A stretch of 64,000 nucleotides of DNA from a virus. The stretch covers positions 1-64,000 of IMG/VR virus record IMGVR_UViG_3300028800_000073; one strand, written 5' to 3'. The position numbers were made by a program, and so were the translations under genes. The first letter of the stretch is position 1; each line of letters starts with the position of its first letter. The notes beneath the pieces are model-generated. The model did not search any database. It had not been told where the DNA came from and was given only the letters and a program-made list of their open reading frames with translations. Shown here piece after piece: positions 39,889 to 53,268 of the stretch.

Positions 39889-40074
39889 TTACCTTCCGTA
39901 TTCATGCAGTACCCGTGTTTTAACTAGTCGATATTCTATGACCGCCTCTGGATCTTCAATGACTACTCTACGACAGGTGGGGCAGAAGTACAAAGAAGCT
40001 ACCTCATGAACCATATGCTCTTGCATCATATCCCCACAACTACACCCCACACTGTCTTGTCCACACCGGCTCAT
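39889..40074 (-). CDS. Small Zn-ribbon protein
   Basis: CSCG...CPTC; ATGA overlap with the E1 gene. Confidence 0.55.
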   Translation of the reverse strand: MSRCGQDSVGCSCGDMMQEHMVHEVASLYFCPTCRRVVIEDPEAVIEYRLVKTRVLHEYGR

Positions 40075-40757
40075 CGCGCCGCCGCTGCTACCGCTACTGT
40101 CTTAGGGGTGTTGAACAGTTCTAGGGACAATAGATTCAAATTAAAGTCCTTTTCTAATGACATACCCCGTAGGTACTTAGAGAACTGACTAACCATCAGA
40201 CCAGCCGCGATATTGGCTGTGAAGATGGTGGACTTAGCGGTACAACTCCCTTGGAAGGCATCCTCTGCTGCAAATAGGCTATCACCATACGAGGGGGTAA
40301 CGAAGTTGTCTTCGGTCACCACGCGAATGGTCTCAGCCGACATGCGGGCGTCAATGAACACCTCAGTCTCGGGAAGCTTAGCAACCGTAGCGAAGATCTT
40401 ACCTCTTGTGGTAATATCGTCGACACAGCAGAAATAGATATCACCCTTAACTGCGTCACAGAACCGCATGTCATGAGCCGTAGTAGCTCCGGGGTTGAGC
40501 CCCTCACAATCAACAAGAAGAGCATCGACCTTCTTCTTACCGACGTCCCCGGGCCTAAAGCCCTGGGGACCGACATTGACGATGTCAACGGTGTCGAAAT
40601 CAACGATGTTCAATTTACCGATGCCACAGGCAGATAGCTGGAGAGCTACCTGCCTGCCAATGGCGCCGACTCCAATAACAACAGCCGCAGTCGCCTTGAG
40701 ATCTGCGGTTGGCAGCAAAGTAGACTGCCTATCGAACCGTGTTGGTTCAGTAGCCAT
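40071..40757 (-). CDS. ThiF/E1-like Ubl-activating enzyme (module B)
   Basis: RFDRQ, GVGAIG, DFDTVDIVN..Q, KKV, CCVD...R and IDARM; putative catalytic Cys in GSCTAK. Confidence 0.9.
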   Translation of the reverse strand: MATEPTRFDRQSTLLPTADLKATAAVVIGVGAIGRQVALQLSACGIGKLNIVDFDTVDIVNVGPQGFRPGDVGKKKVDALLVDCEGLNPGATTAHDMRFCDAVKGDIYFCCVDDITTRGKIFATVAKLPETEVFIDARMSAETIRVVTEDNFVTPSYGDSLFAAEDAFQGSCTAKSTIFTANIAAGLMVSQFSKYLRGMSLEKDFNLNLLSLELFNTPKTVAVAAAAR

Positions 40758-42202
40758 TAGGATTCCCCTAGCATGATTTGAGTTTCTTCTTCGCTCGCCG
40801 GCTTAGCCGGTGGAGTGCCGCAATACTCAATGAATGAACCACCATTCTCGATAACATCACTTTCGTCGTACATATCCTGGATCTGGAACAGAGCCGCATC
40901 AGCAGTCAGCTCGCCAGATACGACTTTCTCAGCCAATAGCATCTCATCGTGGGTCAGGATGAGGGCATCACAGGCGTCTACGGAGCCACGTAGCTGCCAT
41001 AGACAGTTAGCCCGAACCTTCTTGTACACATTCGTGACGATGTCGCCGGTAATGACGGTATCACCGTACTTCCGGGTATGCGTCAGATTGTTCATTGCTC
41101 TCTCGAAATCATCACGCTCAGCGTTGATGTTCTCTTCGAAGTCAACAAATGCCCACGCCTGACTAAACGGCAAATCGTAGAACGTCTCACCACGAGACAG
41201 CGTAAACCGCTGAGTCCCGTTTGTTACATTTATGACTTCCTTGAAACCATACTCCTTGAGATACTCTACTCTTTCTGGCGTGGAAGGCGGAACCCACTTA
41301 AGCTGCTCCATAGACCAGAGAGCGTCAACGTACGTACCCTCTGCAAGAGTGGGGGGCGTGACGCCACCTTGTTGTCTGGGAAACGGAATCGTGGACAGTG
41401 CCTCCTCCCCATGGGACTTGGCGCCAATTATGATTTCCTGAGTAATCTCCGCGACTGCGTCAGTAATCGCCTGCTGCGTCGGAGTCGTCTCCTGACGAAG
41501 AGCGAGATTCTCCCGTGCAGCAGCTCTAGCGGCCCGCTTCTGCTGCTTCTTGCTAAGAGGCATCTGCTGCTGTACCTGCTTGCCCCAGTACCCACTTGGG
41601 AGCTGTGAGCGCCCCTTGTAGCCACCACGGGTATCTGCGTCTTCACCGTAACCACCATAGGCATAGCCCTGGACAGTAATCTTGGGGGTGATCTCTGCCT
41701 TCCACTCAGCGTGATTAGCGCCCTTGAAGTCAGTGGTAAGAGTCAGCTCCTCCTTGAGCATCATCTGGAGGTTAACATCATTGCCAAGGGATACTCGAAT
41801 ACGGGCATAGAGCGGGCCACCCTTAGGAAGGATAACCATCATTGCCCATGGCATGGAGCCAAAGGATTCAGCGAAAATATTCTCATCGTGCTGCGACGGA
41901 TTCAGGCATCCAGACGGGTGGGTGTGGATGTAGATACGTCCAACCTGATGGGGCTTCAACTTATGCGGCCCCTCGGGGTCACAGTACTTCATGAACATGT
42001 TGTCAGCGATATCCGCTGCGTCCATGTCAACGAATACCGTGGAACACTTCTGCTTCGGAATATACAGATCGGTAACCAAGAATGGGTCAGCCGTTTCAGC
42101 TAGACCCATGGCTCCGACTTCATGGTTATAATGATCGCAGATGAATTGGAGCTTAGCCCGAGCATACGGGGTAAACTTGAGCGTGATGCCGGTGATGTTC
42201 AT
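40757..42202 (-). CDS. JAB/MPN+ metalloprotease with a long C-terminal extension (module B)
   Basis: EVG...HTHPSGCLNPSQHD fits the E...HxH-x7-S-x2-D JAMM motif. Confidence 0.88.
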   Translation of the reverse strand: MNITGITLKFTPYARAKLQFICDHYNHEVGAMGLAETADPFLVTDLYIPKQKCSTVFVDMDAADIADNMFMKYCDPEGPHKLKPHQVGRIYIHTHPSGCLNPSQHDENIFAESFGSMPWAMMVILPKGGPLYARIRVSLGNDVNLQMMLKEELTLTTDFKGANHAEWKAEITPKITVQGYAYGGYGEDADTRGGYKGRSQLPSGYWGKQVQQQMPLSKKQQKRAARAAARENLALRQETTPTQQAITDAVAEITQEIIIGAKSHGEEALSTIPFPRQQGGVTPPTLAEGTYVDALWSMEQLKWVPPSTPERVEYLKEYGFKEVINVTNGTQRFTLSRGETFYDLPFSQAWAFVDFEENINAERDDFERAMNNLTHTRKYGDTVITGDIVTNVYKKVRANCLWQLRGSVDACDALILTHDEMLLAEKVVSGELTADAALFQIQDMYDESDVIENGGSFIEYCGTPPAKPASEEETQIMLGES

Positions 42203-42207
42203 TGTGT

Positions 42208-44604
42208 TTATCTTGATGGGGTTTCGGATATAGCGGGTGCTGCCGTAATGAAGTCTACGTGTGCTAGCCTACAGAGCGTATCAGCAACAACCTCAATTGT
42301 AAGACCAGAACGGAAGGTACCATGGTCATTAAGAGCGCTCCTGAGCCGATGAATGGTTTCATACCAGTCAACGGATTCCCAGTCTTCGAGTTCTGAGCTA
42401 TCCTCTTCAAAATCTTCATCCTTAACAAGTACTAGATCCATGATATACGCCTGAGGCACGAAATGCTGCAACAGAGTCATCAAATAAGCTTCCCGCATAC
42501 CGGGTTGGCATACCGCGTCTGATAGGCCCACTGAAGATGGGTCACAGGTCTTACAGGTCTCGGTATTCATGATCTCATCGAAGGCAACAATGGTATTGTT
42601 GAAAACAGCATCGGACAAATTTATTTCGCCTAGTGTGGCACCACAGCTTGGGCAATTGCACCCCGGCGTTGGAGCTACTACTGGGAACGCTACAGTGGAA
42701 TCCGCTTCAATAGCCGCACGTTGAGCCTCTATAACTGCACGCTGAGCCTCGCGGGCTACTCGTGCTGCCTCACGCTGAGCAGCTTCTAATGCTAGTCTAG
42801 CCTCTATCTCTTTGTTAACACAGTTCGCGCAGATACAAGTGCTGCCTTGATTACGACCGTGGTAGCGCCTGGAATCATATCTGGTATTACACGTTGCACA
42901 CGGCTTGATATAGCGCTTATCAATCGACTGTTTACTGATACCACAGACCTCAGTGCAATTCGGGCACATATGGATATCGGCATGCGGATCACGCTTCCTG
43001 GTCTCAGCGACAAGGGGCGTAGTACAGATATCACAGCGATCCATATCGGACCAATTATCAAGACTGATATATGGCGAACGGCCATACGTCATCAAGATGC
43101 GCTCGATATATTGGAATAGATCCGCGATTAGTCCATTACGCATCAGGTTGCCAGCGGTAGCTAGACCCTCACCGAAACATAGGTGCGTACCCTCAACGTG
43201 GGGGTGCGACCAGCTTGTCCCGCGTTCACGCCTGGGGAAATGCGGGGTAAGCGCCTTAATCCTACAGACTCTATCGACATTACGCTGTGTATCTCCACAG
43301 GCATAACCGAAGTCATACGCTGCGATGATAATAGCGAACTTATTGAACTTAATCGGGATCTTTCTATCGTCCATCAGTTCGACATCTTCGGTTACGAACT
43401 TGATACCAATGGGTGCTACTCCATTGTCTATCATGGAACCCTCTTCATGGAACTGAAGAGCCTTGGCACGCATCAAGGTGGCGCACTCAACGATGAACCG
43501 ATCAATGACGTCTTGCGACGGACGAGGCGGTTCCACGTTGTAGGGGTTCTCACCATTTTTAATGGCCAGCAATTCGTCTAGCACCTTCTTCTTCATGTCA
43601 TTAGAGAAAGCTTCACGAAGAATAGTGGGCAGCTTCTGGGCACTCTCGCCGCAGCAGAACAGGCCGTGCCAATGGGCTAACACATTAGTGACGCGTTGGA
43701 AATTCCCAGCGTTACCATTTGCTGCGCCCTTCTTGAGCCCCTCTTCGTAACCGAAATAGAAGTTCTGCACTACTTTAATGAGTTTGTCTAAATCCTCGAT
43801 GGCATCAGGAACTAGCCTGCGCACCGTCGAGTCTACAGCAGTTCCCTGCTCTGTGTTCAGTGTTCTCACTTGTCTTTCCTGTGGTGTTACTACTGCAATA
43901 GCGCTTCTGTCTGATCCCGTACTAGCGAAGTCGGTACTTACGCTGAAAATTCTGGGAGCGTCGCTACTCACCATAAACATATGCGGTGGTATGCCCATAG
44001 CCCGGGTGTAGTCACTTAATGTAGCCCGCAATGGACCTTCTTCTACTACCATGTGAGCCGGAATCGGCTGGATCGGAGGCGCCATTGGTTCTAACGCCTC
44101 CTGAATAGCACGGAGACTAGCAGCCGCAGATGCAGGGCTGGGGAAGGCGCCAGTTAAGTCGCCACCGACAGTACCAACTGTATTGTTCGCCCCAGCTGCT
44201 CGCTGGCTTTCAATGGCGTGCATAATCTCACGACCATCAGCGTTAATCTCGTCCATCACAGTATGATTAGCCGGTCTACCACGTATCGTAAAAACATCCC
44301 CGGGGCGGATCTGAGTCATTACGGGAGCGCGGCTATTATCCAGTAGAACGCGGTTGACTTCGTCTCTAAACTGTACTTCGCTTAACGGCACTGGTACTGG
44401 GCGGTTAAGTGCCCTATCTACAATATTTGTCGAAGCGTTATCACCGAACTGTTCTCTCCAGGCGCTCTGGCGTACCAAAAGCTCATCTAAGACATCTCGT
44501 GACATATTCGGGAATCGCTCCCGTAAATTAGGGGGATGCCTGAAATAGTCCAGAGCGTCCTGGAGCATGTCATCCGGTGAGGAAAAAGGGTTGAACTCAC
44601 TCAC
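42208..44604 (-). CDS. Prokaryotic E2-like conjugating protein with a C-terminal Cys-rich Zn-finger region (module B)
   Basis: SHPHVEGTHLCFG (HPH...C, E2-like) and SPY..L..W, followed by CDIC, CPNC, CATC, CANC, CPSC and CKTC. Confidence 0.75.
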   Translation of the reverse strand: MSEFNPFSSPDDMLQDALDYFRHPPNLRERFPNMSRDVLDELLVRQSAWREQFGDNASTNIVDRALNRPVPVPLSEVQFRDEVNRVLLDNSRAPVMTQIRPGDVFTIRGRPANHTVMDEINADGREIMHAIESQRAAGANNTVGTVGGDLTGAFPSPASAAASLRAIQEALEPMAPPIQPIPAHMVVEEGPLRATLSDYTRAMGIPPHMFMVSSDAPRIFSVSTDFASTGSDRSAIAVVTPQERQVRTLNTEQGTAVDSTVRRLVPDAIEDLDKLIKVVQNFYFGYEEGLKKGAANGNAGNFQRVTNVLAHWHGLFCCGESAQKLPTILREAFSNDMKKKVLDELLAIKNGENPYNVEPPRPSQDVIDRFIVECATLMRAKALQFHEEGSMIDNGVAPIGIKFVTEDVELMDDRKIPIKFNKFAIIIAAYDFGYACGDTQRNVDRVCRIKALTPHFPRRERGTSWSHPHVEGTHLCFGEGLATAGNLMRNGLIADLFQYIERILMTYGRSPYISLDNWSDMDRCDICTTPLVAETRKRDPHADIHMCPNCTEVCGISKQSIDKRYIKPCATCNTRYDSRRYHGRNQGSTCICANCVNKEIEARLALEAAQREAARVAREAQRAVIEAQRAAIEADSTVAFPVVAPTPGCNCPSCGATLGEINLSDAVFNNTIVAFDEIMNTETCKTCDPSSVGLSDAVCQPGMREAYLMTLLQHFVPQAYIMDLVLVKDEDFEEDSSELEDWESVDWYETIHRLRSALNDHGTFRSGLTIEVVADTLCRLAHVDFITAAPAISETPSR

Positions 44605-44894
44605 GTCTTCCTCGACAACTTCTCAAGCGCAGCATCTAGCCCTTTGACTCTGAACTCGCTGACATCTCCTTCATGGTTACAAAGACCACAAACGCATAGG
44701 CTATGCTCGTGAAAGTCGAATTCGGCCATGTCGACCATTATTCCTTTACTGTCAAAAATACCTACACATACGCCGCCTATCTCAAAACGAGATCTACCTC
44801 CGCATCCCGGGCAGATCAGGTCTTGGGATGTGCCCCGGTTTATGTCGTTTTTCGTTAATCTGAACTTCGTTATTACTTCATTGGGGTCATTCAT
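44601..44894 (-). CDS. Zn-ribbon protein
   Basis: CPGC...CVCGLC; coupled to the E2 gene. Confidence 0.6.
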   Translation of the reverse strand: MNDPNEVITKFRLTKNDINRGTSQDLICPGCGGRSRFEIGGVCVGIFDSKGIMVDMAEFDFHEHSLCVCGLCNHEGDVSEFRVKGLDAALEKLSRKT

Positions 44895-45688
44895 TACTTA
44901 CCTACGATAGTGAACTTCTTTGCTAATTTAAGACGCTTCTGCAATGTCTCACGATCCCAACCCTGGCCCTTGGGCTTCGGCTTAGGGCTAAGCTGGAAAA
45001 CCATAACCAATACACCTTCGCCACCTACGCCTATACTAAGAGTTTCGAGATGCTTACCTACGTGTCCATTCTTATAGCAGCTGGACAACGTAAACTGAAT
45101 GAAATCCTCCTCGCTCGGATTCGGAGTACCATAGTCCAGCACTGCGTTTTCTACTAACCCGGCTCTGTAGGAACTATACTTACAAGGCTTATTGAACGTT
45201 AGGAAGAGTAGCCCACCACGCTTCTTCATCATTGAAGTGAGACCTCTCTCTAATTGCCGAGCACAATCACCGTAGTCGTCGCAGGCTATAACATCGAATT
45301 TCCAGCTATCGCGATCAGCTATCTCGGCAAACTGGGCTGCCATAACTGTAAGCGCGTCGCCGTCTTCCTTGCGTCGGTTAACCATTTCAGAACAGAAGGG
45401 TCGGAAAGCCTTAGTCATCTCACCTTCCTGCCCATCATCCTTAAAAGCATGGGACTGATACAGAACTAGCCCGGATTTACCCTCCAGCCATTTTTGTATG
45501 AGTCCCTGTTTTTCGGTATGGTGCATCGAAGGATGCCCAGTAGCCTTTTTCCATTGACGCCTGTAAATGTTAACCTTAGACAATTCCAAATTCAACTTCT
45601 CGCCAATCTCTTTGTTCGGTGCGCCGCTATGCATCATTGCAAATATTGCGTCACGAAGTTTAGTACCATCAGCTAGGCGTATAGTCAT
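44894..45688 (-). CDS. HTH plus degenerate methyltransferase-like domain protein
   Basis: NKEIGEKLNLELSKV (HTH); FDVIACDDYG...GGLLFLT resembles Trm1-like FDxIDLDPYG. Confidence 0.45.
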   Translation of the reverse strand: MTIRLADGTKLRDAIFAMMHSGAPNKEIGEKLNLELSKVNIYRRQWKKATGHPSMHHTEKQGLIQKWLEGKSGLVLYQSHAFKDDGQEGEMTKAFRPFCSEMVNRRKEDGDALTVMAAQFAEIADRDSWKFDVIACDDYGDCARQLERGLTSMMKKRGGLLFLTFNKPCKYSSYRAGLVENAVLDYGTPNPSEEDFIQFTLSSCYKNGHVGKHLETLSIGVGGEGVLVMVFQLSPKPKPKGQGWDRETLQKRLKLAKKFTIVGK

Positions 45689-45701: not shown

Positions 45702-45737
45702 GAAAAAGATGCCCCCGTGGGGTTACCACGGGGGACT
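45702..45737 (-). terminator. Rho-independent terminator after the poly-Ubl gene
   Basis: Minus strand CCCCCGTGG-taacc-CCACGGGGG then CATCTTTTTC. Confidence 0.75.
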
Positions 45738-45762: not shown

Positions 45763-46428
45763 TTAGGCGCCCTGGACCTTGAGCGGGGTGACGGAGATCT
45801 TGTCCCCGTTACGCAGCACAGTCGCAGCCGTGGAGATCTCGTTGTTCACACGAACGAGCTTGCCACGGATGTCATTCAGGCCCTGCTGAGCAAGGAACTG
45901 AGTCAGGGTGATGCCGTCAATGGTCTGAACGGAGCTGGCGAAGCCGGCACCATCGTTGTTGATGTACAGAACCTTAATGGTCTCCACGGCACCCTGGACC
46001 TTGAGCGGGGTAACCGAGACCTTATCGCCGTTCTGGAGAACGTAACCCGCATCAGCCAGGTTGTTATTCACGCGAACCATCTTGTTGGCGATGCTGACAC
46101 CACGACCCGAAATGAACGCCGCGAGCGTGGTGCCCGGGGTGAACGCAACGGAGTCAGCGAAGCCGCCGCCATCGTTGTTGATGAACAGGACCTTGCTAGC
46201 AGCAGCGGGAGCCGCGTAAGCAGGGGCCGCAGCGAACTCGATCTCAATGTAGTCACCGTGCTTAATCGTAGCGTGACCGCTTGAGGGGGTCTCGGAACGG
46301 TTAATGTAGACGGAGGAACCAGCGGGGAGGCCTAGCGCGTTGATGAGTGCATAGACCGTGATATCACCGGCGAAATCCTTGAATGCCGGGGTGCCGCCGT
46401 TGATTTCAACGTTTACTGAGATAGTCAT
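45763..46428 (-). CDS. Three-domain ubiquitin-like (ThiS/MoaD beta-grasp) precursor
   Basis: Three ~70 aa beta-grasp-like units. Units 2 and 3 share INNDG.GFA, VRVNN and L.NGDK.SVTPLKVQGA. Confidence 0.85.
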   Translation of the reverse strand: MTISVNVEINGGTPAFKDFAGDITVYALINALGLPAGSSVYINRSETPSSGHATIKHGDYIEIEFAAAPAYAAPAAASKVLFINNDGGGFADSVAFTPGTTLAAFISGRGVSIANKMVRVNNNLADAGYVLQNGDKVSVTPLKVQGAVETIKVLYINNDGAGFASSVQTIDGITLTQFLAQQGLNDIRGKLVRVNNEISTAATVLRNGDKISVTPLKVQGA

Positions 46429-46432
46429 TTTG

Positions 46433-48754
46433 TTATTCCTTCTTAGCTAATTTGATGGTTTGATCAAAGAAGCTGGTTAGTGATTCGGCGTGTGTAACTA
46501 TTAATATCTGTCTCCCGGTACTCCCGGAAAACTGCTTTAATTTCAAGAGTAACTGTTGTAGATGAACAACGTTGCTCTCGTCTAAATGGTTCGTCGGTTC
46601 GTCGAGTATGAGTAACCCAACGGAACGCGCAAATGTGTCAGACATCGCGAGGCGGAAGCTTGTACTTGCTACAATCTTCTGACCACCGCTTAACCGGTGA
46701 GCCGGTAGCTCAAAGCCACTACTGAACTTGGCTCTAAACGACAGGTCTGCATCCAAGTAAAATTGAAACGGGGCTTCCCAAATCGCCATATAGTGCGCCA
46801 TGCGCCTATTGATCTTATTGGCGTACTCCCGCATCATTAGAGCTGGTAATCCATTGACATGGACTACTTCTCTAGCTCGGGAACACAGTGAAGACCACTT
46901 AGCGGCATTACGCTCGTGGTCATACTGCTTCCTAAGCTGATCAACCGTACTACGGAGCTGGATAAGCTTGGCCTCAGTAACGCCGAGCTTAGTAACTAGT
47001 TCGCTTCGAGTTTGTGTCCGCGCAGACAATATCTCAATCTTTTCTTGAGCTTCTTGTAACTCTGCTGGGGACATCTCGAACTCACTGGTACCCAGTTTAA
47101 GCACCATATCCTTGAGCCGTGCTACCTCTGACGCACACGACGCTTGGGCTGCTTGCTTAATCTGTACCCCTGACTCCGCTTTAACTACCTGATCCTGTAG
47201 CTCCCTAAAGGCATCTACGGCCTTCTGGAGTGACTCAATTTTACCGCTATCAATGCTGGGCAACCTACTGAGTTGAGTACTGATATCGAGTAAACGATTA
47301 GTACCCTGTTTATAGGCTCCCCATTGTGTCTCCAAAGCGGCCTTACTAGCGAGCATTTGGTCGTATTGCGGTTTCGTGGCTTCAAGCATATTTGCCACAG
47401 CCACGCAAGCCGCTTTACGACGCTCTTCTAGTTGCTCCGATATAGTACCCAAATCCCTCTGGGCAGCAGCGACTCTCATCGATTGGTCGCTCTTAATCTT
47501 AGCTATCTCAGCATGCATAGTAGCGGCACGCTGCTTGAGATCGGCATCATTGAAGTCGACAATAGGCCGGTGGCACGTTGGACAGCTACCATCGGCAAAT
47601 GTCTGTAATTCGTACTGAATCCTGCGGATGTCAGCCTCGATGACCACTAGCTTGGGGTCGTCACGTTTCAGTTCTGACAACTGTTTCGTTAACCCTTCGA
47701 CACGATTCGCTAGATCCCTATCCTCTTCTGTTTGGGGTAAGGGTATCTCTTTGCGAATAATGGCTTTTAACTTTGAGCGGGTCTCGGTGAGCTTATTAAT
47801 GGTCTCATCGTATATAGTGATCTCAGCACCGGGCTTAACCAGTTTGGCGTCAATAGTTTGACGCTCGCTGCTCAATACATTACGTTGTGTCCAAGCTGAC
47901 TTAGCTTGATCCAATTCTTTAGCCTGTTCAGCAGCTCCGGTCCGTAGAGCGGAGAAACGCTGAGCAATGATATCGTATTCCTGCTTGGCTAAACTCAGAA
48001 CCTTGTCGGCCTCTATGTAGCGCTCCTGCGCCAGGGAAAGAGCCTCTTCGGTTTGCCGTTTAGCTGACGCACTCTGTTGAGCGATCCTGTAATGCCTCAG
48101 GCGCTCTTCGTACTTCGACAATCCAAGTAGTTCTTCTTCAATAACCCTGAGTTGCTCCCGGAACTCCTGTAGTTCCGTTGTAACCGTTTGTGCGGCCCCT
48201 GAAGTAACTCCGAGCTGCTCTTCTAGCCCTGGAGTGACAGTCAGAGAAGAAATCTCAGTGGACAGTAACCTGTAGACATCAGCGGCCTTGGATAAGCCGA
48301 AGGTGTCTTGGAACTCTTTGAGTCTCTCGGTATTCGTCTTAAATAGGATGTCGTCAATGGCGTGCTGAGCAATGAAGACGTTGTTGAGCAACGCATCCAT
48401 TCTGGTATTGAGTAGAAGAGTCATCTTCTCTTCTATCTCAGCCTGCCGACTAACGATGCCTCCAGGGAACTTTAATTGTTGCCGAGATGGCTCTAGTACG
48501 CGCTTGATCTCGTAACTGCTATCCCCGTGGGTGAACGCCAACGTAACTGATCCAGTACGTTCACCCACAGTGATATTTTCAGCACGAGGCCCCGACGCGA
48601 CTGACTCACCGGTAACAGCAAATCGGATCGCATCGAGTAGCGACGATTTACCGCAACCATTAGGCCCCAAGATACCGGTCAAGCCTTCACTGAACCGGAT
48701 ATCCAAGGACTTCAGTGGCCCCCAGTTTGTCGTTTGTAGCCGCGTCAGAATCAC
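46433..48754 (-). CDS. sbcC: SbcC/Rad50-like SMC ATPase
   Basis: GPNGCGKS, coiled coils, CPTC zinc hook, LSGGQ, LILDEP and VTH. Confidence 0.92.
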   Translation of the reverse strand: MILTRLQTTNWGPLKSLDIRFSEGLTGILGPNGCGKSSLLDAIRFAVTGESVASGPRAENITVGERTGSVTLAFTHGDSSYEIKRVLEPSRQQLKFPGGIVSRQAEIEEKMTLLLNTRMDALLNNVFIAQHAIDDILFKTNTERLKEFQDTFGLSKAADVYRLLSTEISSLTVTPGLEEQLGVTSGAAQTVTTELQEFREQLRVIEEELLGLSKYEERLRHYRIAQQSASAKRQTEEALSLAQERYIEADKVLSLAKQEYDIIAQRFSALRTGAAEQAKELDQAKSAWTQRNVLSSERQTIDAKLVKPGAEITIYDETINKLTETRSKLKAIIRKEIPLPQTEEDRDLANRVEGLTKQLSELKRDDPKLVVIEADIRRIQYELQTFADGSCPTCHRPIVDFNDADLKQRAATMHAEIAKIKSDQSMRVAAAQRDLGTISEQLEERRKAACVAVANMLEATKPQYDQMLASKAALETQWGAYKQGTNRLLDISTQLSRLPSIDSGKIESLQKAVDAFRELQDQVVKAESGVQIKQAAQASCASEVARLKDMVLKLGTSEFEMSPAELQEAQEKIEILSARTQTRSELVTKLGVTEAKLIQLRSTVDQLRKQYDHERNAAKWSSLCSRAREVVHVNGLPALMMREYANKINRRMAHYMAIWEAPFQFYLDADLSFRAKFSSGFELPAHRLSGGQKIVASTSFRLAMSDTFARSVGLLILDEPTNHLDESNVVHLQQLLLKLKQFSGSTGRQILIVTHAESLTSFFDQTIKLAKKE

Positions 48755-48756
48755 GC

Positions 48757-48963
48757 TTAGTTACTCTTGATCTTCTGGGTCAAGAGAACAGCGTTACCCT
48801 CCATGAGGACGGTGCCAAGGGCGCCGACGCTGCCATTGATGCGGATGTCGAAGCCTGAGGCGTCGATACCAGCTGCTGCTAGGGCATCAGCTACCGTCTT
48901 GCCTTCCGGGAGGTTGAGGGGGCGGATGGATGAGCCAGGGAACTTGCCGATGGTGATATTCAT
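48757..48963 (-). CDS. Single-domain ubiquitin-like (ThiS/MoaD-fold) protein (module A)
   Basis: 68 aa; TVADALAAAGI, IRING and L.EG..VLL; C-terminus KIKSN; directly downstream of E1. Confidence 0.8.
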   Translation of the reverse strand: MNITIGKFPGSSIRPLNLPEGKTVADALAAAGIDASGFDIRINGSVGALGTVLMEGNAVLLTQKIKSN

Positions 48964-48974
48964 GTGATTCTTTC

Positions 48975-49673
48975 TTATGACCGGGTTAGGATACAGGGAG
49001 GTGTGACGCCGAAAATTGTTTCTCTTGGCATCCGTTCGACCTTAGAGGCCTTGTCGGTGTACCAATTGAACCAGTTAATGAAACTCCATACCGCTAGACC
49101 GCTAACGATCTCAGCAGTGGGGCCAACGGTAATTTGCGAACCACAAGCACTGACAACAACGACTTCTTCGTCGCCGCAGAGAGTGCCCTCCCAGAATTTG
49201 ACGTCATCAGGACTCGTCGGACGCACCGTATAGGTACGACCTAAGTCGACACCCATACGGGTCTCGAACATGACGTCGATAAATGGCTTATACCGCACGG
49301 CCCCTTCCCAGATTTCCTTTCTGGAGGACATTGTGTCGGTAAGCAAGAATACTACGGACCCCAGCGTTGTGCGGCCATTAACGGCCTCACAATGTTTGGT
49401 CACGTCTAAATTCGTCTGTGTCTTAATAAGGTCAGCTAAGGCGTCTACCTTGAACTTACCGATGTCGTTGTTGCCGTAAATCTGATTTGCGATATTGTGG
49501 GACTCGACCTTGTCGAAATCCCAGACATGCAAATTGATAACACCGAGCTTAGCCAGACCCATGGCGATACGACTACCAGTGGCTCCGACTCCGATAACGT
49601 CAATACGGGTATTGTCGAACTTAACCGGCGAGAATACCTTTTGGTGCCGCATGGCATCGACTAAGTTACTCAC
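48975..49673 (-). CDS. ThiF/E1-like Ubl-activating enzyme (module A)
   Basis: GVGATG, DFDKVESHNIANQ, KFKV, LTDTMSSR and ETRMG; putative catalytic Cys in SACG; likely GTG start at 49673 overlapping the JAB stop. Confidence 0.9.
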   Translation of the reverse strand: MSNLVDAMRHQKVFSPVKFDNTRIDVIGVGATGSRIAMGLAKLGVINLHVWDFDKVESHNIANQIYGNNDIGKFKVDALADLIKTQTNLDVTKHCEAVNGRTTLGSVVFLLTDTMSSRKEIWEGAVRYKPFIDVMFETRMGVDLGRTYTVRPTSPDDVKFWEGTLCGDEEVVVVSACGSQITVGPTAEIVSGLAVWSFINWFNWYTDKASKVERMPRETIFGVTPPCILTRS

Positions 49674-50433
49674 CCCAGAACGTTTCTTCGCTGAATTGTC
49701 CAAAGCGACCCGACGCAGGACCAGCCTGCTGTCCGGATGCCGAGAACTCCGCATGCGTCTTCATAGGTGCCGCGTGGGGATCTACAAAGTTACTTCTCGG
49801 TGTCGGCGTTGGAGTCTGATATGGATACGAGATCAGAGACTTATTGGCCGAATAAAACGATTCAACCAACGAGTTGACCTCTTTACCCCAGTGGCTTTTT
49901 CGGTCGCCCCCGGCAGCGTAATCGATCTCCCAATCAATATCCTCGACTACGATGTCCATCTCGAACCAGAAGAAGTCCAACTTCATCTTGTGACGCTTGT
50001 TCACGATGCCACGGAGCACCCAGGGGTACTCGTAGTTATCGCGGAACGCCATCGTCTGGTCGTTGTCCTGACCACTGGGCAAAACGTCCATATTGACGTG
50101 GCTATGGAAATAGCCGCGCAAGTTATTGGCACGCCACAACGCTGGATCGATACCAGCGGCCATGTCCTCAGCGATAAGCTGAGTACCTAGTGTGGATAGC
50201 CCCTCGGAAGTCAGCTCAGTGGTTGTCGAGTGAACCTGCTGCTTGAACAAATAGACGTCATCAACATAAATGACGCGCTCGCCGTTCTCTTTGACTAAAC
50301 GAGCCGTGGTCAGCCAGCCGACTTCGGTACTAACAATATCAGTCAAAATCCACATATCCGTAGCCGCCCTGAGTGAGACTTTCACTCGGGGGCAGCCTAG
50401 GACGGTGGTCTGGAATGCATGTGGATTAAACAT
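49666..50433 (-). CDS. JAB/MPN+ metalloprotease (module A)
   Basis: EVGW...HSHVNMDVLPSGQD JAMM motif. Confidence 0.88.
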   Translation of the reverse strand: MFNPHAFQTTVLGCPRVKVSLRAATDMWILTDIVSTEVGWLTTARLVKENGERVIYVDDVYLFKQQVHSTTTELTSEGLSTLGTQLIAEDMAAGIDPALWRANNLRGYFHSHVNMDVLPSGQDNDQTMAFRDNYEYPWVLRGIVNKRHKMKLDFFWFEMDIVVEDIDWEIDYAAGGDRKSHWGKEVNSLVESFYSANKSLISYPYQTPTPTPRSNFVDPHAAPMKTHAEFSASGQQAGPASGRFGQFSEETFWGE

Positions 50434-52175
50434 TAGAACGGCCCTTCTCCTGGAGTTCTTTCTACTTCGTCAGCATCTTCTGGTGCCCCAACTGCTACAA
50501 GCTCTTCTAAAGCAGCGGCAATAACTTCAACAATCTCTGCACCGTCAACAGCAGTAGCCGTGCCAGTAGCGCCGGCTCCGGCATCAACAATCGTTACAGT
50601 ATCAACAGCAACAGGTGGTACCGCAACAGGTGGTACCGCAACAGGTGGTACCGCAACAGGTGGTGCTTCAGCCACTGCTGGGGTTTCTTCTTCACCCTCT
50701 AGAATGCCTTCAACAACAGTCTCAACGGTATCGACTTCAACGGGCTGCCCAGCTGCCGCTCGTGCTGCACGACGCAACTCCCGAGCTGCTTCCTTATCGA
50801 TCTCCTGTTGCTTAACCGATAGCGGCCAAGCATGAACCATCTTGCCGGCGGCGTCGTCAACATTGCAGGTCTGGAGAATCGCAATCACTAGCTCGATGGC
50901 ATCAGCAATCTGATATCCAGCGACTAGCTTCGGTAGCACCTCTTCCATATTGCCGAGACACATACGCCCCGTTGGGAACACATGGGGACCATGCATATTG
51001 GGCTGCATACCAGTCACTTGGCGATCAAGGTTGGTAACGACGATGTTGTACCGCTTGATATCGATATGAATCGACATGCGACCAACTTCGTGCTCCTTCT
51101 TCGACCGTGGATCAACTACTGTCAAAGTATTGGTGCGCACCGTAATATTACCGTTACGCATCCTGATCTGCTGGATCAACGGATTAGCCGCCAGACGATC
51201 ATACTCTGCTGTGAATCGCGGAGTACTGAAATCGGCATCATTGTCTAGTACTGCTATTTCCTTGAGGCACTGGCGTTCTTCGCGGATCCCGTCAAATACC
51301 TTCTTATTCAAGTTCGTAAGCTCGGTCTGGACCGTGTTCAGTCTATTGGTGATCTCACGGACCTGGATCTGCTTACGCTTCTCAACCATTCTGACGTAGT
51401 CCGCTCGTAGCGCTGCTGGATCAGTCTCGACGAGCTTAGCACGGGCATAGTTCTCGGCAACGTATTGAATGATCTTCTTGAAGATCTCAACTTCTCTAGG
51501 GCTATTGTTGTGACACAAGTCCGAATAGATATAGAGGTTATTCTCATCGAAGCCTGCAATCGGTCGCTCGGGATACTCCGGGGAGCAAACGTCTATGCCC
51601 TCAGTCCATGGGACGCCATCCATTGCGTCACGGGTCTGTAACTCCATGCCCCACAGAATCCGAGGTGGATCATACGAGGGCTCGCCTCCATCTCGTGCTT
51701 CTGGAGTAGCCCACACATGAATCTTGAACATCGATTCAAGGGTATTGGGAACAATGGAACGACTATTATGTGGTACGTCGATAGTGACATCGCGCTTAAT
51801 GACGGGGACCAAGATCTCACGGCAGATCTTTAGCCAGCCATCGGCTACTGGGTTACTGACAACACCACCACGGATATGACCCCAGTTAACTATACGGATC
51901 GTTGAAGGATCCCTACCGGCAACGGACGGGGTACCATCACGATAAACAATTTGAGCAACCTTTATGATAACCCCGGCAGCTTCAGCTGTTGGCGGTGTAG
52001 CAACGGTAGCGGTGATATTGTAGAGCTTACGACCAGAGCTTTCAATCTTAGCGATTAATGCTTCTCTAGCTACGAAGTGACCACCATGCTGGGGTTCACC
52101 GTAGATACGCAAGCCGATCCCACGAAGTTCTTCGCGGGACATCTCGGTTGCTTTGACAAGGACTAGTTCAGGCAT
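50433..52175 (-). CDS. Prokaryotic E2-like conjugating protein with a coiled coil (module A)
   Basis: HGPHVFPTGRMCLGN E2-like catalytic motif after a coiled coil; coupled to JAB and sbcD. Confidence 0.75.
   Translation of the reverse strand: MPELVLVKATEMSREELRGIGLRIYGEPQHGGHFVAREALIAKIESSGRKLYNITATVATPPTAEAAGVIIKVAQIVYRDGTPSVAGRDPSTIRIVNWGHIRGGVVSNPVADGWLKICREILVPVIKRDVTIDVPHNSRSIVPNTLESMFKIHVWATPEARDGGEPSYDPPRILWGMELQTRDAMDGVPWTEGIDVCSPEYPERPIAGFDENNLYIYSDLCHNNSPREVEIFKKIIQYVAENYARAKLVETDPAALRADYVRMVEKRKQIQVREITNRLNTVQTELTNLNKKVFDGIREERQCLKEIAVLDNDADFSTPRFTAEYDRLAANPLIQQIRMRNGNITVRTNTLTVVDPRSKKEHEVGRMSIHIDIKRYNIVVTNLDRQVTGMQPNMHGPHVFPTGRMCLGNMEEVLPKLVAGYQIADAIELVIAILQTCNVDDAAGKMVHAWPLSVKQQEIDKEAARELRRAARAAAGQPVEVDTVETVVEGILEGEEETPAVAEAPPVAVPPVAVPPVAVPPVAVDTVTIVDAGAGATGTATAVDGAEIVEVIAAALEELVAVGAPEDADEVERTPGEGPF
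50608..50664. repeat. 15-bp tandem repeat (about 3.8 copies) encoding PPVAV
   Basis: GCAACAGGTGGTACC x3 plus a 12-bp partial copy. Confidence 0.95.
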
Positions 52176-53268
52176 TGATATTTTCTCGTTTCTTAATGAG
52201 TATTTCTACTGGGTCTGAGTTTGGTTCTAAGAGATTGAGTAAGAAGCCGTGTAATTCGGACTGTTTATTGGGGTCGACTAATGTACTAAGTAATGCTGCG
52301 ACAGAGATGTCATCGGTCTCTTGTGACGACTGAAGCTCCTCAGCGTCTTCGGTGTCTAGGACGGGGTCGCGGTGGATGATGGCCTTTCGTGTTTCTACGA
52401 AGCGTTTGTAGATCTCCGAAAATGAGGTATTCATTTCCGGTGAATGATGGATCCAAGCAAATGGGGGAAGTGGTCCAGCTTCCATGTCACCGCAGGCTTC
52501 GCAGAGCCAGTTGTGGACATGAGACAGACCGATATCGTCTAAGACCGTAAAGCGTTTGATATGACGGTACGACAAGGGATGCCGGTCATAGGACAGGTCG
52601 TCGTTAATGACGACACAGCTCTTGGGTCCGATCTGCGTGATATCCCTGGCGTGACCGGGACCGGTATAACAGGCTCGGCGGTTACCGGGTAGTGTGAAGT
52701 CCATCGGTACGTGGATATCACCGATAACAGTCAATTTACAGTTACCCGGAATCCACTCTAAATCACAGTTCCAAGCATTCTCGAAGCCCAGGGCTTGCTT
52801 GACGGCTTGGTGGAGGAACAAAACCCTTTCTGTGCCTTCAGGATCGACTTTGTTGGCTAACCCCTCCAAGGAGGCCTTGATGTCATCTTTCGAGCTGTAA
52901 TCGAACCCCAGGGCAGAGCAACCACCTAAATCAAACGGTTCCCCGTTGCCAACGTACTTCGGCCAGTCATGGAGCGCACTGGGCCACGGAGTCTTTTGGA
53001 GGTCATGATTGCCTTGGATAAAGAATACTGGGATCCCAGCTTCTTTGGCGCGATCCATTTGTCTTCGGTGAATCGTTACGAGATCAGAAGACGGTTTCGT
53101 AGTGTCAAAGAGATCCCCAACGATCACTGCTGGTACCTTCAGCCCAATGGCTGCGCCAATGAAACTGCTGTAACCCAGTTCAGAGTCTCCTCTTACGGTA
53201 TCTATACTACTCCAGATCTTAGGGTCTAAGTGGATGTCTCCAAGTGCTACTGCAATCGGTTTTGTCAT
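52168..53268 (-). CDS. sbcD: SbcD/Mre11-like nuclease
   Basis: GDIH, GDLFD, GNHD, LHQ and GDIH phosphoesterase motifs; sbcC partner downstream. Confidence 0.88.
   Translation of the reverse strand: MTKPIAVALGDIHLDPKIWSSIDTVRGDSELGYSSFIGAAIGLKVPAVIVGDLFDTTKPSSDLVTIHRRQMDRAKEAGIPVFFIQGNHDLQKTPWPSALHDWPKYVGNGEPFDLGGCSALGFDYSSKDDIKASLEGLANKVDPEGTERVLFLHQAVKQALGFENAWNCDLEWIPGNCKLTVIGDIHVPMDFTLPGNRRACYTGPGHARDITQIGPKSCVVINDDLSYDRHPLSYRHIKRFTVLDDIGLSHVHNWLCEACGDMEAGPLPPFAWIHHSPEMNTSFSEIYKRFVETRKAIIHRDPVLDTEDAEELQSSQETDDISVAALLSTLVDPNKQSELHGFLLNLLEPNSDPVEILIKKRENINA

Follow-up and report, generated by a model that had tools for sequence, protein, structure and literature searches.

A three-unit ubiquitin-like protein from a phage as a candidate polyubiquitin-style precursor

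Can a virus of prokaryotes make ubiquitin-like modifiers as polyubiquitin genes do, as head-to-tail units in one open reading frame (ORF) that a protease then separates? Polyubiquitin genes are seen as a eukaryotic route to much modifier quickly. The question is raised by a gene at 45763..46428 on the minus strand of the DNA analysed here (the window: 64,000 nucleotides, positions 1 to 64,000 of IMG/VR virus record IMGVR_UViG_3300028800_000073), which encodes a 221-residue protein of three β-grasp units that we call poly-Ubl after its ubiquitin-like (Ubl) domains. The last two units close with the same tail, and genes for an E2-like protein, a JAMM peptidase and a minimal E1 activating enzyme lie downstream. 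We lean, by a narrow preference, towards a cleavable precursor in which the JAMM peptidase would cut both tails, releasing a di-Ubl and a mono-Ubl for conjugation. Coordinates are those of the window, and all features described lie on its minus strand, which holds most of its large genes.

AlphaFold2, given a 44-row alignment, models the protein as three β-grasp units with a mean predicted local distance difference test score (pLDDT) of 91.4 and a predicted template modelling score (pTM) of 0.43; the domains are confident, their relative placement is not. Unit 1 (residues 1–65; 46234..46428; pLDDT 94–97) is a divergent, ThiS-like β-grasp without a Gly-Ala tail. An Ala/Pro-rich linker (residues 66–77; 46198..46233), the joining sequence reading EFAAAPAYAAPAAAS, leads to unit 2 (residues 78–147; 45988..46197), and unit 3 (residues 148–221; 45766..45987) runs up to the stop codon at 45763–45765. 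Confidence dips at the linker (block 61–80) and at the junction of units 2 and 3 (block 141–150, pLDDT 70). Each unit has four DSSP strands and one helix following the second strand; the classic ubiquitin β-grasp is a five-strand mixed sheet grasping one helix. By both AlphaFold2 and Foldseek every unit has the β-grasp/ubiquitin-like fold, the best PDB matches being linear tri- and tetra-ubiquitin, ISG15 and FAT10 (probability 1.00). In a library of viral structures the protein comes closest to giant-virus polyubiquitins and to a multi-domain phage protein that is uncharacterised. Second-ranked there is BFVD entry A0A6J5NMK1 (311 aa, uncharacterised, from an uncultured Caudovirales phage; E 9e-10, 15% identity), which suggests that other phages too may encode multi-β-grasp proteins.

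Units 2 (taken here as residues 75–147) and 3 can be aligned along their whole length (BLOSUM62 score 200) and are about 54% identical. Both end in SVTPLKVQGA, once at residues 138–147 (45988..46017), a candidate internal processing site, and once at the C terminus (45766..45795), with a spacer of three residues (V-E-T) following the internal Gly-Ala. At the DNA level the two copies agree in 27 of 30 bases and lie within a 54-nt repeat that is 81% identical. The differences touch three of the ten codons, all synonymously, so the DNA repeat reflects conservation of the protein and not recent copying. In the last 14 codons of the two units, 5 of the 13 codons for shared residues differ synonymously, and recent gene conversion of that whole 14-codon stretch is unlikely given these five differences. 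The tail repeat itself is best read as homology rather than chance, since the same tail recurs in hundreds of relatives. The first-pass annotation, made from the letters and translated ORFs, had described three β-grasp units, an identical SVTPLKVQGA on units 2 and 3 that is repeated in the DNA, and a tail-less unit 1 on an Ala/Pro linker; translation, alignment and structure prediction bear out each part of that description.

What kind of Ubl ends in such a tail? Units 2 and 3, both matched by a hidden Markov model (HMM) of single units, belong to a large, unnamed Ubl family, almost all of it in Planctomycetota, with the motifs 'FINNDGxGFA ... [TS]PxK[IV]xG[AG]'. A word-indexed search gave 59 relatives and an exhaustive one 317 clusters at 50% identity; species-representative genomes contributed 240 family matches, almost all in Planctomycetota metagenome-assembled genomes, and metagenomes 450. 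A profile of units 2–3 with two-unit relatives found no solved structure close by sequence. Most members are single units of 72–77 aa of the type 'M[KR]ILFINNDGGGFADY...TPTKIEGA'. Unit ends are nearly uniform, with G-A in 133 of 143 scored proteins, G-G in 9 and G-S in 1 (142/143 for G-[A/G]). What follows is short and variable (AA, AV, FAS, LGL, GSRN and VAHAA, for example), ranging from 0 to 5 residues: none in 30 proteins, one in 32, two in 34, three in 10 and four in 8. The family thus carries a conserved C-terminal Gly tail with or without a short extension, as conjugatable Ubls do. Such an extension, short and variable behind a conserved body and tail, is the mark of a Ubl made as a precursor and is the pattern reported for BilA. 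Type II BilA proteins have up to nine residues beyond the conserved Gly (Chambers et al., PMC10557695), and in E. aridi the JAMM enzyme BilC was shown, by Edman sequencing and crystal structures, to cleave BilA at the Gly97–Ala98 bond (PMC10557695). Variants of the tail are also seen, such as KVKSG|G in P0079, and in P0071 two units that both end in KIDGN are separated by an acidic linker of about 30 aa.

The conservation of the tail where a second unit follows bears most directly on processing. The junction retains K[IV]xG[AGS] in 74 of the 83 two-unit proteins, even in pairs whose unit bodies are only 25–55% identical. In an alignment of eight proteins S138, V139, P141, K143, G146 and A147 are invariant, as are G220 and A221 at the C terminus. 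Poly-Ubl has syntenic orthologues in two phage loci, L002 and L086, relative to which the internal tail shows no synonymous and one non-synonymous change (Q/E), and orthologous proteins in P0002–P0005; across the phage proteins P0001–P0005, 52–60% identical overall, both tails stay SVTPLKV[QE]GA. In a unit tree built on 72 residues, with no branch support values, the unit 2 copies of these proteins (that of the window included) form one clade and the unit 3 copies its sister, and because the copies fall into sister clades the tree points to one duplication before these phages diverged, that is, an old one. About ten further within-protein unit pairs are sisters in the same tree, suggesting that multi-unit forms arose repeatedly by independent duplications; related family operons have one, two or three units, and P0015 repeats its unit exactly, start Met included ('KIEGG|MNILFINN'). 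In P0008, P0009 and P0016 unit 1 is a degenerate family unit without a tail, so the tail can apparently decay where it is not needed. The residue before the Gly agrees between the two tails above the shuffled expectation in proteins that are phylogenetically related, a concordance that is suggestive only. Taken across the family, these comparisons support the tail as a site of processing and activation. The 90%-identity clusters of P0029 and P0032 hold 145-aa two-unit proteins together with 72–74-aa proteins that match unit 1 or unit 2 almost exactly; such mixtures could reflect very recent gain or loss of a unit, or assembly breaks at the repeat, and are not used as evidence here. We also note that P0066 has a domain of about 150 aa inserted between its units 1 and 2.

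A processing site calls for a protease, and the gene neighbourhood offers one. In 65 of the 74 loci with at least 3 kb of downstream flank, the Ubl gene leads an operon in which the genes directly behind it encode an E2-like protein (~370 aa), a protein with a JAB domain and a minimal E1 of the ThiF type (~230 aa). The order in Planctomycetota (loci L003–L164, for example L017:8058-10790) is Ubl, a coiled-coil plus E2-like plus CxxC-array protein, JAB and minimal E1. Homologues of all three partners are found in the window, so that linked E1, JAMM and E2-like genes accompany poly-Ubl, with fold support for the E2 that is moderate (Z 7.0). By synteny and homology, the cognate enzymes of poly-Ubl are those of this downstream cassette (40071..44604) and not those of a second one upstream. 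The first-pass annotation had considered either JAB protein as the protease; two genes whose JAMM motifs are intact do lie nearby, as do two for ThiF-type E1s, but synteny and homology single out the downstream cassette alone as the cognate set.

The E2-like protein (798 aa; 42208..44604) is homologous, by tblastn and blastp, to the second gene of the bacterial operon, the domain shared with the ~370-aa bacterial protein being residues 448–578. It has an E2-like core, probably of the UBC fold, with the motif SHPHVEGTHLCFGEG and a CxxC zinc array, the Cys of HLCFG standing at about residue 476; among its homologues a THPHVxxxxLCEGD motif, here THPHV..LC, is near-invariant and is followed by the CxxC array. 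AlphaFold2 modelled residues 340–600 with a pLDDT of 81, and in a wide VIA-align search, which is independent of Foldseek, the top ranks were mostly E2 enzymes, the best at Z 7.0 (below the mark of 8) with a root mean squared deviation of 3.6 over 124 aligned residues and RWD and UEV domains next. Beyond the core, a 30-sequence alignment shows 15 invariant or near-invariant Cys columns arranged as CxxC pairs, for which the Foldseek rows are PHD and LIM zinc fingers at non-significant E-values; the array may be a built-in substrate adaptor or an E3-like module.

The likely processing enzyme is a JAMM/MPN+ peptidase (481 aa; 40757..42202), the counterpart of the third bacterial operon gene, made of a JAB domain (residues 1 to ~180) and an extension of about 300 aa. 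Its residues E28, H93, H95, S103 and D106 are conserved in 61 homologues, and the nearest solved relative of the family profile is the Rpn11-like 6fjv (E 2e-4). Bacterial homologues match only the first ~150–215 residues of the phage protein, and the extension had no family match in the scans of window proteins. The gene at 40071..40757 encodes a minimal ThiF-type E1 (228 aa) with a GxGxxG motif, a conserved Cys172 and E1 matches in PHROG and PADLOC; it is 39–48% identical to the E1s of the Planctomycetota operons, for which Pfam gives a ThiF match.

By gene content these operons resemble Type II BilABCD, with the same order of Ubl, E2, JAB and E1, residues after the conserved Gly and the G|A dipeptide. 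The phage cassette differs in its two extra genes between the Ubl and the E2-like gene, in a short E1 (~230 aa, or half the 453 of the BilD model), in an E2-like protein with HPHV..C and a CxxC zinc array, and in a repeated internal motif, a candidate cleavage site, of a kind not reported for BilA. PADLOC gives the E1 of locus L017 only a partial, weak BilD match (E 4.8e-9), ranked under Cap2-type E1–E2 models. The Ubl/E2-like/JAMM/minimal-E1 operon is a separate, undescribed family, and a literature search returned no description of it or of a phage poly-Ubl. Upstream of the Planctomycetota operon lie conserved genes for a classic AAA ATPase (PF00004, phrog_8638), a DUF1257 protein and several proteins without a family match, and a serine recombinase family occurs near it in 12 loci, which hints at a link to a mobile element.

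We propose that poly-Ubl is the linear Ubl-modifier precursor of this phage Ubl/E2-like/JAMM/E1 conjugation cassette. The JAMM peptidase would recognise a β-grasp body together with its tail and cut at the tail, most probably between Gly and Ala, in two places: where unit 2 meets unit 3, and at the C terminus. The products would be a two-domain modifier of units 1 and 2 (~146 aa) and a one-domain modifier, unit 3 (~73 aa), each of which the minimal E1 would adenylate at its C terminus and the E2-like protein would pass to targets. We favour the Gly–Ala bond, which the first-pass annotation had also named, with fair, not full, confidence over a cut after the Ala, by analogy with BilC and because it cuts BilA between Gly97 and Ala98. 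Thirty family ORFs stop exactly at G-[A/G] and, among the ORF ends listed, none stops at the Gly, so that either an Ala is obligatory beyond the cut or G-A is itself the mature end, as G-G is in ubiquitin. An internal cut is plausible on comparative grounds: since the residues after the tail vary, prime-side specificity would be low and a domain that follows should be tolerated. BilC cuts a BilA–GFP (green fluorescent protein) fusion (PMC10557695) and Cap3 cuts cGAS–GFP. Likewise, HvJAMM1 with SAMP fusions (PMC4443979) and Cap3 with cGAS fusions are cases in which a JAMM enzyme frees a Ubl-type C terminus from a linear fusion, unlike the present case in that their substrates are a single Ubl or cGAS on an unrelated partner, not tandem Ubls.

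Structure prediction of the enzyme with its putative substrate points the same way. For residues 1–190 of the JAB protein with units 2–3 the predicted complex scored 0.55 against 0.01 for the best control, in runs that agree in at least 0% of contacts with a partner pLDDT of at least 70; in calibration, 58 of 80 solved complexes attained the score mark, as did 2 of 110 mismatched pairs, and only 7 of the 80, but both of the mismatches, did so at 0.60 or under. The prediction lends weak support to the pairing, and its score may reflect likeness to, or memory of, solved JAMM–Ubl complexes.

Several points weigh against cleavage of this kind, and some of them favour a different use of the same protein. 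The three-residue spacer might hinder a JAMM enzyme. P0066 ('KIQAA') and P0073 ('NIKAA') have lost the internal Gly, and because of this uncleaved multi-domain forms do appear to exist in the family. No locus was found in which two units stand as separate neighbouring genes, as natural fission would leave them. A short gene-conversion tract (≤20 nt), rather than recognition by a shared enzyme, could lie behind the parallel Q/E state of the two tails. At E ≤ 0.01 PADLOC assigned no Bil family to poly-Ubl, the E2-like protein or the JAB domain, in the window or in L017, and the E2-like assignment, of moderate confidence, draws on the motif and the moderate Z scores, Foldseek returning nothing for the model at E ≤ 0.001. 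Intact multi-domain Ubls are moreover the documented norm in Bil and Bub systems (PMC11601603): Ubl3, of the Bub or '6e' polyUbl group (Iyer et al. 2006, PMC1779556; Gong et al. 2024, PMC11601603; PDB 9cd2), is a bacterial Ubl of three domains that acts intact, its domains 1 and 2 tightly packed and the protein forming Ca2+-bound dimers and filaments as one modifier (PMC11601603). Poly-Ubl could on this precedent be an uncleaved three-domain modifier used whole, like ISG15, FAT10 or Ubl3, with only its C-terminal tail processed and activated and the internal tail serving to link the units or to dock E1, E2 or JAB non-covalently. The relatives without an internal Gly, the short junction linker and the appearance of the E. 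coli multi-ubiquitin-domain protein 9cd2 among the Foldseek fold matches would all suit such a protein. We hold this to be possible, and clearly the less probable of the two uses. The internal Gly-Ala tail is invariant across an apparently old duplication and is kept by the great majority of two-unit relatives despite diverged bodies; its retention in unit 2 is not automatic, seeing that P0008, P0009 and P0016 tolerate a tail-less first unit; and the number of units differs among related operons. The model of poly-Ubl shows no confident mutual placement of its units, whereas domains 1 and 2 of Ubl3 pack tightly, and a pTM of 0.43 is no more than a hint of independent domains. Poly-Ubl further differs from Ubl3 in belonging to another sequence family and in carrying a full tail at the junction; its E1, JAB and E2-like proteins are separate genes, not the JAB–E1 or E2–E1 fusions of Bub/6e loci, and DUF6527, the BubE partner, had no match in the Pfam scans of neighbours.

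Two further explanations would remove conjugation by the phage altogether. A multi-tail Ubl could act as a decoy or competitor that occupies or mis-charges the homologous E1, E2 and JAB of the host, perhaps a defence or stress system, without modifying targets. Bacterial homologues are widespread across the presumed host phylum, where a genome often has several (L007/L030, L039/L060 and L009/L011), Bil-type Ubl systems can be anti-phage (PMC11601603), and the fast evolution of unit 1 is what an arms race would predict. A pure decoy, though, would not need the full enzyme set with intact catalytic motifs that the phage carries, and the PADLOC matches for the bacterial operon are to generic JAB and E1 models only; we regard a decoy as unlikely. 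Least probable by far is a sulfur carrier of the ThiS/MoaD type. Weak Pfam hits of the ThiS/TGS type (below cut-offs), relatives named 'sulfur carrier protein ThiS' at source and an E1 of minimal ThiF/MoeB size recall such carriers, but the tail is Gly-Ala plus variable residues rather than a free C-terminal Gly-Gly, the constant partners are a JAMM peptidase and an E2-like protein, and the setting is a phage replication module in which no ThiG, MoaE, sulfurtransferase or similar family turned up among the scanned neighbours.

If poly-Ubl is a cleavable precursor, what is the tail-less unit 1 for? It is a confident β-grasp and only a remote relative of units 2–3: the unit HMM of the Ubl family does not match it, and hhalign gives a probability of 46% against the unit family, within a range of 46–82% over comparisons with that family and with a 68-aa Ubl encoded upstream. 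It also evolves much faster than its neighbours, with 41–46 of 62 codons non-synonymously changed relative to the orthologues compared with 17–20 of about 60 in units 2 and 3. Were the junction cut, unit 1 would stay attached to unit 2, giving an ISG15-like di-Ubl with a variable head. ISG15 and FAT10 are likewise single modifiers of two β-grasp domains, as predicted for the unit 1–unit 2 product; they differ in that their N-terminal domain is without a processing tail and that their precursors release no further Ubl. Unit 1 might help to choose targets or take part in an arms race; the first-pass annotation had proposed oligomerisation or interaction as its possible role.

The setting of the gene is that of a large phage. 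The source record is 79.8 kb, with an estimated completeness of ~43% (CheckV), and because contigs carrying close homologues of the 221-aa protein measure 176–190 kb, the phage is probably of jumbo size. A search of IMG/VR gave only two other loci, and the phage GenBank collection gave no tblastn match; longer relatives (388–2000 aa) were sought and none was found, which is weak evidence. Pfam and PHROG scans place a family A DNA polymerase, helicases, an SbcD-like phosphoesterase, an SbcC-like ATPase and the large terminase subunit around the gene, and the poly-Ubl ORF starts 4 nt after the SbcC-like gene. On its 3' side an intrinsic-terminator-like hairpin with a T run occupies 45702..45734; the hairpin (45734..45712) has a 9-bp stem with 8 G-C pairs, followed by CATCTTTTTC, which agrees with the strong terminator noted there in the first-pass annotation. 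Two genes found only in phages (264 aa and 97 aa; 44601..45688) come between poly-Ubl and the E2-like gene and are present only in L002 and L086; the 264-aa protein has a weak GerE-like helix-turn-helix match.

The second cassette (48757..52175) encodes a 580-aa protein with HGPHV..C, a 255-aa protein with a JAMM motif (49666–50433), a 259-aa E1 and the 68-aa Ubl, which ends in KIKSN. Among all fetched loci its genes occur only in the phage loci L002 and L086, and the cassette is not the cognate set for poly-Ubl. Its Ubl (48757–48963; L002:5467-5673) ends in ...LLTQKIKSN with no Gly, and the L002 orthologue, 74% identical overall, is identical over the last 14 residues, so the KIKSN end is not a read error. 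MccB-type enzymes of the ThiF family adenylate a C-terminal Asn, and by analogy this cassette may use a different end chemistry. The cassette sits between the genes for the SbcD-like phosphoesterase (Pfam Metallophos) and the SbcC-like ATPase (Pfam SMC_N, phrog_77), within 46433–53268; sbcD and sbcC usually adjoin one another.

How far, then, does the likeness to eukaryotic polyubiquitin (UBB/UBC and yeast UBI4) extend? In both, head-to-tail Ubl units share one ORF, units (here 2 and 3, and thus each predicted released product) end in the motif that a protease and E1 require, extra residues may follow the last unit and the number of units varies through tandem duplication. Unlike their eukaryotic counterparts, the tailed phage units are only about 54% identical, with a three-residue spacer between them and x-G-A in place of R-G-G; the phage protein is capped N-terminally by a tail-less β-grasp, its likely protease is a JAMM enzyme, it is phage-borne, and cleavage is here what we infer. 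Bacterial 'polyUbl' proteins were likened to polyubiquitin genes in 2006 (Iyer et al., PMC1779556), and those studied since act as intact multi-domain units (PMC11601603). New here are the Ubl family, distinct and very large; the retention, across an old duplication, of a full processing tail where two units join; repeated duplication events; and a phage-borne copy with its own enzymes.

More tentatively, and with somewhat less assurance than we attach to cleavage of poly-Ubl itself, we suggest that true polyubiquitin-style precursors evolved repeatedly by tandem duplication in phages and Planctomycetota, their JAMM enzymes cutting x-G|A tails to yield several activatable modifiers. In this phage clade one gene would give two different modifiers in constant 1:1 proportion, a mono-Ubl and a di-Ubl that resembles ISG15 and evolves fast in its N-terminal domain, and both would feed a self-contained, ubiquitination-like phage system lying within a replication and repair cluster. 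If true, such a gene, borne by a prokaryotic virus and with a full processing tail preserved between two of its units, would parallel polyubiquitin directly in function. The locus also exposes a large, unnamed Ubl/E2-like/JAMM/minimal-E1 operon family in Planctomycetota and a phage with two such cassettes among its replication genes, and it raises the question of what a phage ubiquitinates, or de-ubiquitinates, in the course of infection.

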